Below are positions 16,427 through 23,972 of a stretch of DNA of 32,000 nt, one piece after another; position 1 is the first letter of the stretch, and each line of letters opens with the position of its first letter. The notes beneath the pieces are model-generated. The model was not told the origin of the DNA, made no database searches, and saw nothing but the letters and a program-made list of their open reading frames with translations. The position numbers were made by a program, and so were the translations under genes. This stretch comes from an uncultured Candidatus Saccharibacteria bacterium (lineage in GTDB: Bacteria > Patescibacteriota > Minisyncoccia > UBA11713 > 2-01-FULL-45-33): assembly GCA_964367075.1 (NCBI GenBank), contig CAYIWH010000007.1:185-32184 (forward strand), given 5' to 3'.

Positions 16427-16498
16427 GTCCTCGTAGTTCAATGGATAGAATATCTCCCTCCGAAGGAGGTGATCCCAGTTCGACTCTGGGCGAGGGCA
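16427..16498 (+). tRNA. tRNA-Arg (anticodon CCG)
   Basis: Manual cloverleaf: acceptor GTCCTCG/CGAGGGC, D arm GTTC-AATGGATA-GAAT, anticodon arm TCTCC-CTCCGAA-GGAGG, T arm CCCAG-TTCGACT-CTGGG, discriminator A. CCA is not encoded. Confidence 0.9.
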
Positions 16499-16550
16499 AA
16501 AATATGCTATTATAATGAAAGTAGATAATTATAAGCTAATAATATTTAGC

Positions 16551-16823
16551 ATGGATAAAAAAGTGTCAAAAATAATCGTGGATAGGAATCTTTGTATAGG
16601 AGCGGCTAGTTGTGTGATCGCGGCATGTGATGTATTTGAATTGGATGCGGAAAACAAAGCAGTTATTAAACTTAAAAACAACATAAAAAATTCAGGTCCT
16701 GCGGAGCGCCCAAATCTTGAAGGTGATGCCGTGAAAGACGCGGATATTGTGGCCGCGGCGCAATCGTGTCCAACAAAAGCAATAACCTTGATTGCGGAAG
16801 ACGGAAGCAATATATATCCATAA
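16551..16823 (+). CDS. Small single-cluster ferredoxin ([3Fe-4S]/[4Fe-4S] type)
   Basis: IVDRNLCIGAASCVIAACDVFELD ... AAQSCPTKAI (CxxAxxC...CP pattern). The ATG at 16551 is preferred over the ORF-track start at 16515. Confidence 0.75.
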   Translation: MDKKVSKIIVDRNLCIGAASCVIAACDVFELDAENKAVIKLKNNIKNSGPAERPNLEGDAVKDADIVAAAQSCPTKAITLIAEDGSNIYP

Positions 16824-16854
16824 ATTTAAATCTTACTCATTAAATACATTATTT

Positions 16855-18093
16855 GTGCAAGAAAATATTAAATATTTAATTGTAGGGGGAGGGGTTGCAG
16901 GTACCACGGCGGCAGAAATCATTCGCAGTGTTGATAAAGACGGCAGTATCGCGATCGTTTCGGACGAACTGTACAGGCTTTATTCGAGAATAATGCTTTC
17001 GAAGCCGAATTTTTTTCTTGAAAAAATTCCATTTGACAATGTTTGGCTAAAAACGGATGATTGGTACAAAAAAAACAACATTGAATTTATAAACGGCAAA
17101 AAAGCAGTTTCTATTGATGTCACAAACAAAACAATTACACTTAATGATGACAAAACTATCAAATATGAAAAATTGCTTCTCGCGATCGGCAGTTCTACAA
17201 GAGCGTGGGAAGCGCCAGGAGCAAATAAAAAAGGAGTTTTTTATTTGCGCACACTCGATGACGCCAAAAAAATAATCGCCGAAGTTAAAACAGCCAAAGA
17301 AGCTGTATGCGTAGGCGGAGGATTTGTGAGCTTTGAGATGTGCGACATGCTAAAGATGGCGGGGATTGATGTGACGCTTGTCCTGAGAGAATCGCACTAC
17401 TGGGAGCCACTGTTGGATGAACCGTCAGGGCGCATTATCGAGGAGGCTTTAAAAAAAGGGGGAGTAAAAATAATTTTAAATTCAGAAACAAAGGAAATTT
17501 TAGGAGGTGAAAAAGTAGAGAGTATTGTACTAAATAATGGGCGCACGATTCCTTGTCAAATTATTATCGCCGGCATTGGCGTTTGCTGTCAGCTGGAACA
17601 AATAAAATCATCAGGCATTCAAACAAATCGAGGTATTCTCGCAAACGAGTACCTTGAGACAAATATTACGGATATTTATACTGCTGGCGATTGTGCAGAA
17701 TTTAAAGATGTTATTTTGGGAGAAAGCGTTCAATTGGGCAATTGGGTCAACGCACAGATGCAGGGCAAAATCGCTGGGGGAAATATGACGGGCAAAAAAG
17801 ATCCGTTCAAAATGGTGTCGTTTTATACTACACAAGGATTTGGTATTACAATTGCGTTTGTAGGCGATGTTCGCCCAAGCGCGGATCGCTCCATTATCAC
17901 ACGAGGTTCTTTTGAGATCGGTTCGTACGGAAGGATTATTATAAAAGATGGCGAGATAATAGGCGCTACATTAATTAATCGCACACAGGAGTTGTGGACC
18001 ATCTCAAAATTAATAGAAAAAGATTTCAAAATTGCCGGACACGAAACCGAATTATCAAACCCAGATTGTAAATTACAAGAGCTGATAAAATAA
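16855..18093 (+). CDS. FAD-dependent pyridine nucleotide-disulfide oxidoreductase (ferredoxin/rubredoxin-reductase-like)
   Basis: YLIVGGGVAGTTAAE (FAD GxGxxG), AVCVGGGFVSFEMCDML (NAD(P) site), YTAGDCAEF. The GTG start at 16855 is chosen because the longer ORF overlaps the ferredoxin gene, so the start is uncertain. Confidence 0.8.
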   Translation: MQENIKYLIVGGGVAGTTAAEIIRSVDKDGSIAIVSDELYRLYSRIMLSKPNFFLEKIPFDNVWLKTDDWYKKNNIEFINGKKAVSIDVTNKTITLNDDKTIKYEKLLLAIGSSTRAWEAPGANKKGVFYLRTLDDAKKIIAEVKTAKEAVCVGGGFVSFEMCDMLKMAGIDVTLVLRESHYWEPLLDEPSGRIIEEALKKGGVKIILNSETKEILGGEKVESIVLNNGRTIPCQIIIAGIGVCCQLEQIKSSGIQTNRGILANEYLETNITDIYTAGDCAEFKDVILGESVQLGNWVNAQMQGKIAGGNMTGKKDPFKMVSFYTTQGFGITIAFVGDVRPSADRSIITRGSFEIGSYGRIIIKDGEIIGATLINRTQELWTISKLIEKDFKIAGHETELSNPDCKLQELIK

Positions 18094-18100
18094 AAACAAC

Positions 18101-18589
18101 ATGGACGAAAAAATAAAAATCGGATGGTTTTCTTTTTCGTGCTGTGAGGACAGTACTATTGTGTTTACGGAAATAATGAACGACCATTGGCAAGATTGGA
18201 AAAAAATGTTTGATTTTAGGCACGTCAGAGTTTTAAAATCGCACAATATTTTAGACTCTCTCGATGTTGCTTTTATTGAAGGGGCAATCGCTTCAGATGA
18301 GCATACCGCCAAAGTCAAAGAAATTCGTGAAAAGTCAAAGATTGTAGTAGCCATTGGCGCGTGCGCAGTTGTAGGTATGCCCGCAGGTCAGCGTAATTTT
18401 TTTACTGAAGGACAAAAAAAAGAAATTGAATTTCTTATCGCACGATTTAATGCTCTTCCAAAGGTTTTGAAGCTCTCAGACGTTATCAAAGTGGATGCGG
18501 AAGTTGGTGGATGCCCAATGGACCCAAATAAATTTTTGGAGGCGGTTAATGGCATTGTAACTACTTTAAAAAATCCAGCTCCAAAATAA
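18101..18589 (+). CDS. [NiFe]-hydrogenase small subunit, short soluble type (group 3 / sulfhydrogenase delta-like)
   Basis: IGWFSFSCCEDS...AFIEGAI...VAIGACAVVGMPAGQRN...VGGCPMD: NuoB/20-kDa-like proximal-cluster cysteines in a ~160-aa protein. Confidence 0.8.
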   Translation: MDEKIKIGWFSFSCCEDSTIVFTEIMNDHWQDWKKMFDFRHVRVLKSHNILDSLDVAFIEGAIASDEHTAKVKEIREKSKIVVAIGACAVVGMPAGQRNFFTEGQKKEIEFLIARFNALPKVLKLSDVIKVDAEVGGCPMDPNKFLEAVNGIVTTLKNPAPK

Positions 18590-18590
18590 T

Positions 18591-19706
18591 ATGATTACTG
18601 GGCTCACCGCGTTTTCTTACCAAAATATTGCAAAACCAATATTTTTTTTAATTGATCCGGAAAAAGTACACGACAATATGACAAGGCTTGGAGGGAGTCT
18701 CGGCGGCAGCAAAATGATGGTTTCGCTTTTAGCGCGCGCGTTTAATTTTGAAAACCAGATCTTGGAACAAAAAATTTGGAATATAAATTTTAAAAATCCA
18801 GTCGGACTTGCAGCCGGCCTTGATAAAAATGCAAGGCTTACCCAAATATTACCGTCTTTGGGATTTGGATTTGAAGAGATTGGCTCGATTACTTTGGAAG
18901 AAAGCGAAGGCAATCCTCGTCCTCGATTGAGCCGATTGCCTCAAAGCCAAGGGCTTGTTGTAAATTATGGCCTTGCCAACATGGGCGCGGAAAAAATATT
19001 AAAACATCTTTCTGCTAAAAACCACTCATTCCCGATTGGCATTAGCATAGCAAAAACAAATTCTCCGCGCACCGCCGATAAGCAATCAGGAATTGATGAT
19101 TATGTAAAATGTTTTCAAAAAGTAGTGCAAAGCAATTTGGGCAATTACATTACTATAAATATAAGCTGTCCAAATGCGTACGGAGGAGAACCATTTACTA
19201 AACCGCAAGATCTGGACGACTTGCTTGATGTTTTGTATAAAATTTCAAACAAAAAACCTATTGCAATAAAAATGCCGGCTGACGTGAGCACAGAAGAATT
19301 TCACGCACTGCTTTTAGTATGTAAGAAATACAAAGTGAATGGAATTATATTGTCCAATTTAACGAAACAAAGAGAGTCGCCGTGTATATCGCAAAAAGAA
19401 ATTAAAAACGCAATACCAAAAGGAGGTATTAGCGGAAAGCCTTGTTGGAATAAGTCCAATCAATTGATACAATATGCTTATAAGAATTTTAAAGACGATT
19501 TTACAATTATTGGTTGTGGTGGTATTTTTTCTGCCGAAGACGCGTACATCAAAATACGGCTTGGCGCGTCTTTAGTACAATTGATTACCGGTCTTATTTT
19601 TAAGGGACCACAGCTTGTATGTCAAATAAATCAAGGACTTGCGTCTTTATTGAGAAAGGACGGATTTAATAACATAAAAGAAGCGATCGGCGCAGATAAT
19701 AAATAA
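18591..19706 (+). CDS. pyrD: Dihydroorotate dehydrogenase, class-2-like architecture
   Basis: FKNPVGLAAGLDKN, GFGFEEIGSIT, PRPRLSRL, VVNYGLANMG, ITINISCPNA, ILSNLT, GGISGKP, IIGCGGIFSAEDAY, GASLVQLITGLIFKGPQLV. Colinear with E. coli PyrD including the N-terminal extension. Confidence 0.85.
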   Translation: MITGLTAFSYQNIAKPIFFLIDPEKVHDNMTRLGGSLGGSKMMVSLLARAFNFENQILEQKIWNINFKNPVGLAAGLDKNARLTQILPSLGFGFEEIGSITLEESEGNPRPRLSRLPQSQGLVVNYGLANMGAEKILKHLSAKNHSFPIGISIAKTNSPRTADKQSGIDDYVKCFQKVVQSNLGNYITINISCPNAYGGEPFTKPQDLDDLLDVLYKISNKKPIAIKMPADVSTEEFHALLLVCKKYKVNGIILSNLTKQRESPCISQKEIKNAIPKGGISGKPCWNKSNQLIQYAYKNFKDDFTIIGCGGIFSAEDAYIKIRLGASLVQLITGLIFKGPQLVCQINQGLASLLRKDGFNNIKEAIGADNK

Positions 19707-19710
19707 AACT

Positions 19711-21000
19711 ATGCATACTATAGATTTAAAATTTGATCATTTTACAAAAGTTGAGGGTGCGGCAACATTGGATGTAAAAATCCGTGACGGAAAGGTAGAG
19801 GACGTTCATTTTAAAATAGAAGAATATAAAAGATTTTTTACAAAGGCGATAGAAGGCAAACCAATCATCGCTCTTCCACAGCTTCTTTCAAGAATTTGCG
19901 GCACATGTTCCAATGCACATATTTTGTGCAGTATTGAGGCGTGTGAACACGCTTTGGATATTGAGCCATCAGAGCAAACAAAGCTTTTGAGGCGACTTAC
20001 AATGTATGGTTTAAATATTCGCGATCATGCTTTGCATTTGTATCTTTTTGCAATGCCGGATATTTATGGTAAAGATGCTTTTTTGGATTTTGACGAAAAT
20101 GATTCAGAGCAACATCAGCTTTTGCACGATGCTTTTGAAATGAAAGCGGCAGGAAATTATTTGGCAACGATCATAGCGGGCCGAAGCGTGCACGCGACCT
20201 ATCCTACAATCGGAGGATTTACTCATTTTCCAAGCGCTGAAGAAATCGCAGAGGCAATCAAAAAAATGGAAAACATTAGGCCGGCTGTTTTGCGTCTTAT
20301 TGAAATATTCAAAAAAGCACCATTTCATTTTGATAGAAAAACAAGTTTTATGGCACTTGTGCCGAAAGATGTATATGGTTTTATTGACGGAGTTATAAAA
20401 ACTGACGACGGCGAAACAATAGAAGAAAAAGATTATCGAGATCATTTGGAGAGAGTGGTACTACCGTATTCTCAAGCGTCTGCGTATAAACACAAAAGAG
20501 GCTCGTATATGGTAGGATCTCTTGCAAGAATAAATCTTGCAAAAAATTTGTTGCACGAAAAAACAAAAGAATCTTTGTGGACCACATTAGATATTTTTCC
20601 ATCTACGGATATTTTTGCTAACAATATCGCGCAAGCAATTGAAATTTTGCATTCTTTGGACCACGCAATAGAGCTTTTAAAATCAAACACATTTGCACAA
20701 GAAGAGATTATAAAAAAAGAGTCTAGGGAAGCGACTGGCGTTGGAGTTGTAGAAGCGCCTCGCGGGACTTTGTATCATAAATATGATTTAGGAAAAGATG
20801 GGCTTGTGAAAAGCGGGGAAGTAATAGTACCCACAGGACAAAATCAAGTAAATATTGAAGAAGATATATTTGTGCTTGTGCAAAATCTTCTCCCTAATAC
20901 ATCAAAAGAAAAAATCCAATTCGAAATAGAAAAACTAATTCGCGCTTACGATCCATGCATGTCCTGTGCCGCACATTTTTTGAAAGTTAATTGGGAATAA
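19711..21000 (+). CDS. [NiFe]-hydrogenase large (catalytic) subunit
   Basis: N-terminal Ni-binding motif RICGTCSNAH and C-terminal DPCMSCAAH, followed by a 7-aa tail (FLKVNWE). Confidence 0.9.
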   Translation: MHTIDLKFDHFTKVEGAATLDVKIRDGKVEDVHFKIEEYKRFFTKAIEGKPIIALPQLLSRICGTCSNAHILCSIEACEHALDIEPSEQTKLLRRLTMYGLNIRDHALHLYLFAMPDIYGKDAFLDFDENDSEQHQLLHDAFEMKAAGNYLATIIAGRSVHATYPTIGGFTHFPSAEEIAEAIKKMENIRPAVLRLIEIFKKAPFHFDRKTSFMALVPKDVYGFIDGVIKTDDGETIEEKDYRDHLERVVLPYSQASAYKHKRGSYMVGSLARINLAKNLLHEKTKESLWTTLDIFPSTDIFANNIAQAIEILHSLDHAIELLKSNTFAQEEIIKKESREATGVGVVEAPRGTLYHKYDLGKDGLVKSGEVIVPTGQNQVNIEEDIFVLVQNLLPNTSKEKIQFEIEKLIRAYDPCMSCAAHFLKVNWE

Positions 21001-21068: not shown

Positions 21069-22124
21069 ATGATTAAAATTAGCCAAAAACAACAAGAAAT
21101 CATATTAATTCTTCTTAAAAAGGAAGGCATGAGTTCCTCGGCTATTTATGCTGAGCTGACTAGTGGTGGCGCACAAACTTCATTAGTTACTATAAAGCGC
21201 TCTCTATCAAAAATGCAATCGCAAGGCATTTTGAAGGTTTCTGGAAGGGGACGAGCCACAAATTATGATGTTTCTGTAACAGGAAGAATTTTTATTGATA
21301 TAAACGCGCATGAGTATTGTTCTATTGATCCAGACAAAAGATTTGGTATGAAAAATTTTAATTTTGAACTTTTTGCAAATATTCCATCTCAAATATTTTC
21401 AGATGACGAATCAAAACAGCTTTATAATTCTACTCAGCAATATTTACAAAGAACAAAAAATATTTCAGTTACTATACAAAAAAAAGAACTGGAAAGATTG
21501 ATTATTGAGCTTGCGTGGAAATCTTCCAAAATTGAAGGTAACACATATACTCTTCTTGATACAGAAAAGCTTATTGTAAAAAACGAAGAAGCTGTGGGTC
21601 ATGATAAAAAAGAGACGACTATGATTATTAATCACAAAAACGCCTTTAACTTTATTCACGACAATTCAGATATTTTTAAAATTTTAACACATGCAAATTT
21701 GGAAAAACTACATTCAATTCTGGTACAAAATTTAAGTGTTGGCATTGGATTGCGTCAAAAACCAGTTGGGGTCATAGGATCTAAATACCAACCACTTGAT
21801 AATTTACGTCAGATTTCAGAAGCAATAGAAGCGCTCTCGGCGACAATTACGAAAATAAAATCACCATATGCCAAATCTTTAGTTGCGTTGCTCGGTATTA
21901 GTTATATTCAACCATTTGAAGACGGAAACAAAAGAACAGCTCGTTTAATGGCAAACGCATTGCTTTTGGCATATGGGCTTGCACCACTTTCATACAGAAG
22001 TGTTGATGAAACCGAATATAGAGAAGCAACAATTGTTTTTTATGAAATAAATTCATTAATGTCGTTGAAAAAAATATTTATTGACCAATATGATTTTGCC
22101 GCAAAAACATATACGGTAAAATAA
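21069..22124 (+). CDS. Fic/Doc-family protein with N-terminal wHTH-like domain; active-site motif QPFEDGNKRTAR (Gln in place of the catalytic His)
   Basis: Fic core motif at 21909-21944. An inhibitory-helix-like SSKIEGN ((S/T)xxxE(G/N)) lies at 21522-21542. N-terminal SSAIYAEL...LVTIKRSLSKMQSQGIL resembles a wHTH. Confidence 0.85.
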   Translation: MIKISQKQQEIILILLKKEGMSSSAIYAELTSGGAQTSLVTIKRSLSKMQSQGILKVSGRGRATNYDVSVTGRIFIDINAHEYCSIDPDKRFGMKNFNFELFANIPSQIFSDDESKQLYNSTQQYLQRTKNISVTIQKKELERLIIELAWKSSKIEGNTYTLLDTEKLIVKNEEAVGHDKKETTMIINHKNAFNFIHDNSDIFKILTHANLEKLHSILVQNLSVGIGLRQKPVGVIGSKYQPLDNLRQISEAIEALSATITKIKSPYAKSLVALLGISYIQPFEDGNKRTARLMANALLLAYGLAPLSYRSVDETEYREATIVFYEINSLMSLKKIFIDQYDFAAKTYTVK

Positions 22125-22591: not shown

Positions 22592-22612
22592 GCTCTCGAA
22601 AGAGAGCTTTTT
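22592..22612 (+). terminator. Rho-independent terminator
   Basis: GCTCTC-GAAA-GAGAGC followed by TTTTT. Confidence 0.7.
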
Positions 22613-22613
22613 A

Positions 22614-22985
22614 TTATGAAAAGCCTAAAATAGGAAAAATCTTTTCTATTGCTTCTTTTTCAGAAGTTGTCGAGGGAACGCCAATTATTTTTATTTTTTT
22701 TAATTTGTCGAGTTTGTCTAAAAATTTTAAATTGGCATATACATCAAAATCGTGCATTGTGATATTTGGCGCTTGAGAAAAATCTTTGATGCTATCAAAT
22801 ATAGTTATTTTGTCTATACCAAGCACCGTATCAATAATAATAAGCCCATCTGGAATATCCCAATCTTCATTTGGATCTTTTATTTCAAAATCAATTTTTG
22901 GGAACATTTTTTTCAGCTCCGGAAGTATTTTTAACGGAGTTGAATCAAAGTCTAATTCCCAATTGCCAAAAACAAAAACTTTCAT
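22614..22985 (-). CDS. Hydrogenase maturation endopeptidase-like protein (HycI/HybD family)
   Basis: VFVFGNWELDFDS, LIIIDTV and ITMHDF align with the GNxxxxDD / D / H metal-ligand positions of HycI/HybD. Size is ~120 aa. Confidence 0.55.
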   Translation of the reverse strand: MKVFVFGNWELDFDSTPLKILPELKKMFPKIDFEIKDPNEDWDIPDGLIIIDTVLGIDKITIFDSIKDFSQAPNITMHDFDVYANLKFLDKLDKLKKIKIIGVPSTTSEKEAIEKIFPILGFS

Positions 22986-23039
22986 ACTTTATATTTTATT
23001 AGTGTGAATTACAAAGCATCACTCAACAGTACTTTTTCT

Positions 23040-23132
23040 GGAACCTTTGCATGGTATGCAAAGGTTCCGTAATTTTCTGACTGAAAATTCGCTTCTTCCT
23101 GCCTGCCGGTAGGCAGGCTCGCTCCGTCGAGC
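23040..23132. repeat. Cluster of three GC-rich hairpins in a 200-bp spacer
   Basis: Perfect 13-bp stem GGAACCTTTGCAT-GGT-ATGCAAAGGTTCC (23040-23068); GCCTGCC-GGTA-GGCAGGC (23101-23118); GCTCG-CTCCGT-CGAGC (23117-23132). Confidence 0.5.
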
Positions 23133-23186: not shown

Positions 23187-23972
23187 TCATATATTTTCAT
23201 TCGCGAGCGCAATGCTCTTTAGCGTATAATACTCAATTGTTTTTGCCTTTTTCTCACTTATCACTTCGCATGGCACGCCCCAATGAATAGAAACAATATC
23301 ACCGATTTTCACATCGTCTATTTCAATGCTGGATTCCAGAGAGCGGGCTATTTTGCGTTTTTCAATATTTCCCAGTTTAAGCTTATTTTTAATAAAAATT
23401 AATGACTTTGTCGCAACAGTGATAAATGGTCCGTCTATTTTTTCTACTTTGCCAGAGCTTATTCTACATTCGTTCATACTTTCTAATGTGTGCGCTTCTT
23501 CTAAATGACCTGTGCGTTTCCAAATATTAAAAACGTGAAAAGAATGGTGCGGAAGAGCACCGTTTTTTATTTTTTCTTTTATTTTTTCAAAAGATTTTGA
23601 GCCAACTTTGTTTTTTATATTTTGATCTTCTAAAAGATGTCTATAAAAAGATTGTTTGTCAATTTTTTCTAACAAATTATTTCCTATCCAATATGCTTCC
23701 ACCACCCTAACATCAAAAGGGTCGCTGATTTTATTTGCTCTGGCTATATAATTAAGATAAGGATACATTGTTTGAAATTGTTTCAACAATGTCTCAATGC
23801 TGGGATCCGAAATTCCCTCTTTTATATATGACAAAATTTCTTCATTCGCATCAGGGCCACAATAATGAAGCCGATTTGGCCCAAATGCGTATTTTGCACA
23901 AAGAATTATTCCGTCTTGTTTAAGAAGAGAAATATTTTCCTCGTTTTTTGTATATTGAATATATTGTTTCAA
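23187..23972 (-). CDS. Hypothetical protein with a C-terminal HypC/HupF-like segment
   Basis: C-terminal ECRISSGKVEKIDG...VKIGDIVSIHWGVPCEVISEKKA parallels HypC (MCIGVPGQI..IDG...G.WVLVHVGFA...I.E.EA). The start is a TTG and overlaps the upstream gene by 53 nt, so it is uncertain. Confidence 0.45.
   Translation of the reverse strand: MKQYIQYTKNEENISLLKQDGIILCAKYAFGPNRLHYCGPDANEEILSYIKEGISDPSIETLLKQFQTMYPYLNYIARANKISDPFDVRVVEAYWIGNNLLEKIDKQSFYRHLLEDQNIKNKVGSKSFEKIKEKIKNGALPHHSFHVFNIWKRTGHLEEAHTLESMNECRISSGKVEKIDGPFITVATKSLIFIKNKLKLGNIEKRKIARSLESSIEIDDVKIGDIVSIHWGVPCEVISEKKAKTIEYYTLKSIALANENI

Follow-up and report, generated by a model that had tools for sequence, protein, structure and literature searches.

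Why pyrD, a gene for dihydroorotate dehydrogenase (DHODH), should separate the genes of the small and large subunits of a [NiFe]-hydrogenase is the question raised by a 32,000-nucleotide stretch of DNA from an uncultured Candidatus Saccharibacteria bacterium (contig CAYIWH010000007.1), the whole of which is referred to here as the window. A DHODH must hand two electrons from its reduced flavin mononucleotide (FMNH2) to an acceptor, and bacteria of the Candidate Phyla Radiation (CPR) are, to our knowledge, usually without quinone synthesis and a respiratory chain. The original prediction, made from the window sequence, held that dihydroorotate oxidation may be wired to the hydrogenase module. 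The best reading of the locus, held tentatively and at a little less than an even chance, is a redox coupling between DHODH and the hydrogenase/diaphorase module that is specific to the lineage, and so far it is gene context that suggests it. The predicted wiring gained plausibility from the recurrence of the arrangement above chance expectation; the rarity of the linkage, operons porous to other genes and membrane-domain fusions within the PyrD family (VKOR, PAP2) tell against it.

The pyrD gene and its hydrogenase operon

The cluster read from the window consists of five genes on the + strand, whose order and coordinates as first described were confirmed on the sequence. It encodes a single-cluster ferredoxin of 90 amino acids (16551..16823), a flavin adenine dinucleotide (FAD)/NAD(P)H oxidoreductase of the ferredoxin/rubredoxin-reductase type (16855..18093), a truncated [NiFe]-hydrogenase small subunit of 162 amino acids (18101..18589), PyrD with 371 amino acids (18591..19706) and a group 3b-related large subunit of the CPR 'hyd2' type with 429 amino acids (19711..21000). 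The successive intergenic gaps are 31, 7, 1 and 4 nt, of which the last three had been given before and the first, between ferredoxin and flavoprotein, is added here. Pfam matches were Fer4_15 (1.6e-10) and Fer4_13 for the ferredoxin, Pyr_redox_2 (187 bits), Pyr_redox and Rubredoxin_C for the flavoprotein, Oxidored_q6 for the small subunit, DHO_dh (229 bits, residues 58-354) for PyrD and NiFeSe_Hases for the large subunit. The ferredoxin shows the Cys pattern C-x2-A-x2-C ... CP and has an alternative ATG at 16515 that would give 102 amino acids. The flavoprotein starts with GTG; its longest open reading frame, from TTG at 16792, would overlap the ferredoxin. Its top NCBIfam matches are ferredoxin-NAD+ reductase components, every one under its cut-off, and it is presumed to be the diaphorase of the hydrogenase in the window.

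Upstream, the cluster is limited by a tRNA-Arg(CCG) gene (16427..16498, + strand) called by ARAGORN. A consensus scan found 40 promoter-like sites against 33 +/- 6 expected, those inside the cluster not being above chance. Only weak hairpins occur within the cluster (18139-18156 and 20522-20542), and strong terminators fall outside it (22592-22607 and 23039-23069). The identical 371-residue PyrD and its neighbours were found on four independently assembled contigs from Hainich groundwater (aquifer) metagenomes; therefore, the arrangement is not an assembly artefact.

The motifs originally reported were all found: RICGTCSNAH and DPCMSCAAH in the large subunit, where both are invariant across 33 relatives, and NISCPN and LIFKGP in PyrD. 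The large subunit is 69-90% identical to many Patescibacteria large subunits, and its top NCBIfam matches, ShyA (262 bits, cut-off 700) and HydA (229 bits, cut-off 880), are both far below their cut-offs. The small subunit matches the 261-position HydD model at positions 3-153 only and is therefore without the domain bearing two of the three clusters; in an alignment, the C-terminal part of a full-length HydD (locus L138; loci and proteins are designated here by L and P numbers) has no counterpart in it. Alignment to full-length CPR HydD also showed that its proximal-cluster CxxC reads C14-C15-E16-D17, with the second Cys replaced by Asp and an extra adjacent Cys. The motif FSCCED is common to the small subunits of the window, L130 and L043. 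The possibility that PyrD stands in for the missing small-subunit domain was considered and rejected, the truncation being universal in hyd2 with or without pyrD.

No genes for the beta (AsrA-like Fe-S) and gamma (PyrK/AsrB-like FAD) subunits were found in the window, where the ferredoxin and the Pyr_redox_2 flavoprotein take their place. A truncated small subunit (mean 164 amino acids) in the company of a PF07992 flavoprotein (fam013), a small Fe-S protein and a HypC-like family, without beta and gamma, has already been described for the group 3b-related CPR 'hyd2', whose function is uncertain (Jaffe et al., 2020, BMC Biol, PMC7304191). The window flavoprotein corresponds to fam013 (PF07992), and a DUF6390 protein encoded downstream matches fam002 of that study. 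The window hydrogenase is of this described hyd2 type, by the features given there and not by placement in its tree. In the subclade nearest the window, the usual hyd2 operon reads ferredoxin-flavoprotein-HydS-HydL with HydS and HydL directly adjoining (L009-L013, L021). In L177 (14963-15227), a pair of Fer4_15 ferredoxin and Pyr_redox_2 flavoprotein genes like that of the window is found 7 kb 3' of a canonical hyd1 operon; such pairs may form a redox module of general use in CPR, independent of hyd2.

The order hydS-pyrD-hydL is not unique to the contig. It was found in the window and in five further lineages (type 1), with PyrDs 57-75% identical to that of the window (L005, 75%; L086/L090, 62%; L088, 60%; L171/172, 62%; L173, 57-58%), so that the recurrence in relatives that had been put forward as a check holds down to ∼57-60% PyrD identity; an analogous insertion was also seen in hyd1. 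Within the PyrD clade P0001-P0011, each of the six members looked up shows this embedding. The hydS-pyrD junction is a 1-nt gap or an overlap wherever it was seen, and pyrD and hydL are 4 to 54 nt apart, L171/172 excepted.

In a second type, pyrD stands between the genes for gamma, a PyrK homologue, and delta in canonical four-subunit hyd1 operons (L138, L170 and L174), in which every subunit type is present and the order is the canonical B-G-D-A (hydB-hydG-hydD-hydA). In L138 and L170 pyrD is directly downstream of the PyrK homologue. Look-up of PyrD P0080 and HydL P0143 showed a hyd1-type operon. The type-2 PyrDs are no nearer the type-1 clade than stand-alone PyrDs are, the smallest common clade in the neighbour-joining (NJ) tree holding 143 of the 205 sequences. 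The type-2 large subunits are only 32% identical to that of the window, and this is therefore a separate insertion. At L130, a PyrD of a third lineage is encoded 3 kb away from a hyd2 pair, its gene back-to-back with that of the maturation protease. The pyrD family has thus entered hydrogenase clusters at least twice and, with L130, probably three times.

The L130 large subunit is 84% identical to that of the window, yet its PyrD belongs to another lineage and lies outside the operon. Such a case favors an indirect association, in which hydrogenase and PyrD are both sparse, laterally transferred CPR accessory genes, or are both needed in the same anoxic condition, and have expression or transfer history in common but no electrons. 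Hyd1 and hyd2 are indeed scattered over the CPR tree in conflict with the species tree, which implies lateral transfer (PMC7304191). The embedded loci were likewise not recovered as a clade in the HydL NJ tree (smallest clade containing them, 93 of 190 sequences), where they are unresolved because HydL is too conserved. HydS identity, at 74-93% for the embedded loci plus L130 versus at most 69% for the others, suggests from sequence that the embedded loci do group. Against an indirect association, pyrD is found inside operons and not merely in the same region, and the stand-alone PyrD loci show no island-like conserved neighborhood. We consider this explanation improbable.

The frequency of co-location expected by chance was estimated with a model of uniform placement in a 1-Mb genome, with the enzyme in 10-30% of CPR genomes and 540 kb of PyrD flanks. 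It gave 0.05-0.16 expected loci against the two observed outside the discovery clade (P ∼0.001-0.012). Recurrence together with this excess over chance makes it plausible that DHODH and the hydrogenase/diaphorase module are functionally linked.

Further genes are found 3' of hydL. A HycI-like candidate maturation endopeptidase of 123 amino acids (22614..22985, − strand; weak Pfam HycI match, E 0.007) is followed by the DUF6390 protein mentioned above, with a HypC-like C-terminus (23187..23972, − strand; DUF6390 202 bits, weak HupF_HypC match). Among 80 related hydrogenase loci, a HycI-like protease gene adjoins HydL in most, and the DUF6390 gene accompanies the hydrogenase in many CPR/DPANN loci. 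Between hydL and these genes lies a gene for a Fic/DOC-domain protein with an N-terminal winged-helix-like region (21069-22124); it is probably a recent insertion, because no such gene stands at the matching position in the relative L005. At 26104-26175, ARAGORN reported a tRNA-like gene without assigning its identity; the anticodon has four bases ('gggg'), which implies an 8-nt anticodon loop. At L130 (1933-4479; Ga0209541_10007334), maturases of [FeFe]-hydrogenase lie directly 3' of the CPR [NiFe] hydS-hydL pair and are followed by the HycI-like protease. They are HydG (439 bits, above cut-off) and a HydE-like protein (236 bits, slightly under cut-off), and no hyp genes are visible in this stretch, which hints at an unconventional maturation of the NiFe site.

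Class, fold and catalytic residue of PyrD

PyrD was scored against the curated models of both DHODH classes. It exceeded the class-2 cut-offs (NF003652, 338 bits against 267; TIGR01036, 281 bits against 200) and remained at 98-104 bits on the class-1 models, far under their cut-offs of 269-270 (TIGR01037, 104 against 270). PDB alignment showed colinearity with the rat and human class-2 enzymes from residue 2-19 onward. The AlphaFold2 (AF2) model was predicted with a mean local confidence (pLDDT) of 96 and a predicted template-modeling score (pTM) of 0.94, and includes N-terminal helices at 2-18, 23-38 and 41-51 with pLDDT >95. By Foldseek, the model reached a TM score of 0.88 to human DHODH and 0.85-0.89 across class-2 structures from human, M. 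tuberculosis and H. pylori, with 0.88-0.89 to those of full length. The colinearity with class-2 enzymes that had been noted from the sequence is thus borne out by alignment, NCBIfam scores and the predicted structure.

The motifs NISCPN and LIFKGP are accompanied by the invariant substrate and FMN motifs, which are kept. In an alignment with the rat class-2 enzyme, the position of Cys193 (NISCPN) is taken there by the catalytic Ser of 'NVSSPN', in agreement with the original observation of Cys in place of the class-2 Ser. As a peculiarity of this operon the feature did not stand, as Cys occupies the base position in 118 of the 120 closest homologues, which are all from CPR and for the most part stand alone, as well as in 133 of 150 representatives with 35-54% identity. 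A Cys base as the mark of hydrogenase coupling was rejected on the same ground. Sequence and model together indicate that PyrD is a genuine DHODH of a CPR-wide Cys-type family with a predicted class-2 fold. This family falls outside class 2 by its base, which is not Ser, and outside class 1 by sequence.

A non-biosynthetic role for PyrD, in which it would reduce orotate with H2 or NAD(P)H or serve the hydrogenase as a general FMN subunit for electron transfer, was also considered. In its favor, there is a weak PreA match (39 bits), and in dihydropyrimidine dehydrogenase a DHODH-fold domain is the terminal FMN module fed by Fe-S chains. Hyd2, being without the medial and distal clusters, needs some partner (PMC7304191). 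This role is nevertheless very improbable, since PyrD scores above curated DHODH equivalog cut-offs, keeps its invariant active-site motifs and is 50-58% identical to stand-alone CPR PyrDs, and since hyd2 functions without PyrD in nearly all lineages.

The N-terminal hydrophobicity of embedded and stand-alone PyrDs differs by less than one standard deviation. The embedded clade of type 1 has lost residues that are conserved in >75% of other CPR PyrDs (V90, G102, W114, K129, K173, D238, M335 and E338) and gained a one-residue insertion at 275. W114 adjoins the conserved Arg of PRxxRL, and we take positions 90, 335 and 338 to align with quinone/acceptor-tunnel positions of human DHODH. These changes are weak evidence, drawn from sequence comparison, that may fit an altered acceptor site.

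Coupling or co-residence

Several observations weigh against a redox coupling, and they bring forward its main rival, according to which a housekeeping pyrD landed in a compact, insertion-tolerant operon and is only co-transcribed there. Its acceptor would then be unrelated to the hydrogenase, with free flavin, scavenged membrane quinone, O2 or an unknown carrier as candidates. Such hitch-hiking is well possible, if short of probable. The linkage is rare, as none of the 80 related hydrogenase loci in species-representative genomes (about 60 of the CPR/DPANN hyd2 type and 17 canonical 3b loci) has pyrD within 7 kb. Most PyrDs of the family stand alone: 77 of 80 metagenome loci of the closest PyrDs (∼96%) are without a hydrogenase gene nearby. 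When the neighbors within 4 kb of the stand-alone PyrDs at these 77 loci were clustered, no family occurred in more than five loci, and neither pyr genes nor a redox partner were found. pyrD is also absent from two of the four sampled hyd1 operons, and the non-CPR 3b operons examined showed no pyrD insertion.

The position of pyrD is itself of limited weight, as CPR hydrogenase operons are porous to unrelated genes. In L178 (1-4557; Candidatus Terrybacteria, JACQXW010000025.1), murD and murC are tightly packed between the hyd1 genes hydD and hydA, and hypC, hypD and hypE follow the operon. A NYN-domain gene stands between hydD and hydA in L174. In L043 (3014-6633; Gracilibacteria, genetic code 25), hydS and hydL are held 4 kb apart by opposite-strand genes. 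Even in type 1, the pyrD-hydL gap widens to 54 nt in L086/L090, and in L171/172 the two genes are ∼2.9 kb apart, with unrelated genes between them. The inserts there (L171, 2896-5581; L172, 1454-4139) comprise a 252-residue protein without a Pfam match, an opposite-strand open reading frame of 94 amino acids and an RVT_1 reverse transcriptase of 333 amino acids. Spacing and position alone are therefore weak evidence of function, and only recurrence of the same family argues for it; the tight spacing, from which translational coupling was first read, is seen for MurD and MurC likewise. The L043 insert encodes two paralogous proteins of 412 and 443 amino acids and an HNH-like protein of 344 amino acids.

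The PyrD family itself offers acceptors other than a hydrogenase. Fusions to an N-terminal VKOR (vitamin K epoxide reductase) membrane domain were found in 10 of the 150 closest 50%-identity representatives of the family, from Patescibacteria and WWE3 (P0248, P0249, P0256, P0257, P0261, P0263, P0266, P0289, P0291 and P0304), and the VKOR loop Cys pair and CxxC are intact in all nine fusions checked, the partial P0266 being left out. The closest representative, P0241 at 54% identity, is a fusion with a PAP2 membrane phosphatase domain, which gives the family a membrane anchor of another kind. By sequence, these fusions point to membrane, quinone or thiol acceptors in the family, on the membrane side as hitch-hiking would have it, and the argument excluding a quinone-type mechanism is therefore weakened. 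The VKOR-PyrD fusions (∼7% of representatives) suggest that CPR lineages solved the electron-sink problem in several ways. A literature search on DHODH plus VKOR gave ferroptosis papers only, with no paper found on VKOR-PyrD fusions. In P0243, a cytidylyltransferase-like domain lies C-terminal of PyrD.

The embedded proteins themselves also weigh against a coupling. The residues lost in the type-1 clade are kept in the type-2 PyrDs; substitutions shared by both embedded types were looked for and none came up, the changes seen being specific to clade 1. In the embedded PyrD, the class-2 N-terminal domain is complete, and there is no Fe-S motif or docking domain. NJ bootstraps for the embedded PyrD clades are low (36 and 20). 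The 3b gamma subunits score 149-183 bits to PyrK models (cut-off 224), and those beside pyrD are not more PyrK-like than the others (149-163 bits versus 162-183 without pyrD).

Hitch-hiking, in turn, has to account for the entry of one PyrD family into hydrogenase clusters at least two and probably three times, at differing positions and in different hydrogenase subtypes, for numbers that exceed the uniform-placement null, and for the retention of the arrangement over the PyrD divergence given above. With these points set against the preceding ones, lineage-specific redox coupling is retained as the preferred reading. It would not be general to CPR PyrDs or to hyd2. A wider formulation, that of an unrecognised DHODH system in which a class-2-fold, Cys-base PyrD docks on a group 3b hydrogenase/diaphorase module as electron sink (ferredoxin and flavoprotein in hyd2, the PyrK-like gamma subunit in hyd1), is possible, if less likely than not.

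In the coupling proposed here, pyrD would have been inserted into a standard Patescibacteria hyd2 operon and retained afterwards, and the FMN of PyrD would give up its electrons to the iron-sulfur chain of the hydrogenase module and not to a respiratory quinone pool. Electrons might pass from dihydroorotate to FMN and on to the ferredoxin's [Fe-S] cluster, to the proximal cluster in the truncated small subunit, or to both. From there, the flavoprotein could carry them to FAD/NAD(P)+, in a manner resembling class 1B DHODH, or they could reduce H+ at the NiFe site. In class 1B enzymes, electrons run from FMN through [2Fe-2S] and FAD to NAD+ via PyrK, and by analogy the ferredoxin and the Pyr_redox_2 flavoprotein are proposed as the window's equivalent of a PyrK-type module. 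Such a path is permitted by the potentials concerned, which are ∼-258 mV for orotate/dihydroorotate, -320 mV for NAD+/NADH and -414 mV for H+/H2 at 1 bar, the last rising to ∼-270 to -300 mV at 1-10 Pa H2. Given the H+/H2 potential relative to that of orotate/dihydroorotate, H2 release would be thermodynamically feasible only at low H2, of ∼1-10 Pa or below. Values of -242 to -330 mV are quoted for the DHODH-bound FMN (PMC8520639).

Literature searches on DHODH with hydrogenase, CPR or Patescibacteria yielded nothing relevant, in line with the earlier statement that no such coupling was known, and the insertion of pyrD in a CPR hydrogenase operon appears to be undescribed. The recurrent embedding in two types of CPR hydrogenase operon links two questions on CPR bacteria, namely the electron partner of hyd2 and the re-oxidation of a class-2-type DHODH in cells not known to have quinone synthesis or a respiratory chain. 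If the wider formulation is true, a physiological partner would be named for hyd2, and one answer given to how a 'quinone-type' DHODH is re-oxidised in respiration-less CPR cells. NAD(P)+ reduction or H2 evolution would in that case be driven by pyrimidine synthesis, or the reaction reversed to an H2-driven redox poise. With a real coupling, a fourth acceptor logic would stand beside fumarate, PyrK/NAD+ and quinone. If it is not real, the locus cautions that CPR operons admit unrelated housekeeping genes. The hypothesis is directly testable.

Comparison with known systems

The cytoplasmic, NAD(P)-linked sulfhydrogenase of the Pyrococcus type (group 3b, alpha-beta-gamma-delta) resembles the window hydrogenase in that ShyA and HydA are the best matches of the large subunit, and both enzymes, that of Pyrococcus and that of the window, are cytoplasmic and NAD(P)-linked. 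The window differs in lacking beta and gamma, in a small subunit without the two-cluster domain and in scores far below the cut-offs. The canonical 3b small (delta) subunit has ∼250 amino acids and three [4Fe-4S] clusters, from which the 162 residues in the window depart.

The CPR hyd2 of Jaffe et al. (PMC7304191) is closer. Intact Ni motifs, a truncated small subunit of nearly equal length (∼164 amino acids there and 162 here), the absence of beta and gamma, and a PF07992 flavoprotein, a small Fe-S protein and a HypC-like protein near the hydrogenase genes are shared with the window. The difference lies in the DHODH gene between hydS and hydL in the window and the five further lineages; dihydroorotate is never mentioned in the text of that study. 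For hyd1, the same study records some loci with gamma and beta 'not immediately upstream' of the small subunit.

Class 1B DHODH, a PyrD-PyrK heterotetramer, shares with the window PyrD the Cys catalytic base and, as proposed, re-oxidation through Fe-S and FAD; in the hyd1 variants (L138, L170 and L174), pyrD is moreover downstream of a PyrK homologue. Unlike class 1B, the window PyrD has a predicted class-2 fold with an N-terminal helical domain and scores 104 bits against 270 on the class-1 model, the flavoprotein is of the Pyr_redox_2 type and not PyrK, and the partner module includes a hydrogenase. The canonical class-2 enzymes (E. coli PyrD and human DHODH) agree with it in full-length colinearity, in the N-terminal helical domain and in scores above the class-2 cut-offs, and differ in the catalytic residue, Ser where the window PyrD has Cys, in the embedding of the gene in a hydrogenase operon and in the CPR host.

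Class II DHODHs with a Cys base are known from fungi (ArUra9, SjUra9 and DbUra9), where they serve anaerobic, respiration-independent pyrimidine synthesis, and the acceptor of ArUra9 is free FMN/FAD and not quinone, NAD(P)+ or fumarate (Bouwknegt et al., 2021, PMC8520639). As a precedent for Cys-type enzymes at work under anaerobic conditions, they speak for the coupling, and the free-flavin acceptor is at once a point in favor of the hitch-hiking explanation. The fungal enzymes are eukaryotic and without hydrogenase linkage, and the N-terminal domain present in the CPR enzyme is missing from ArUra9; they share with the window PyrD the class-2 scaffold, Cys for the catalytic Ser and occurrence in organisms that live without respiration.

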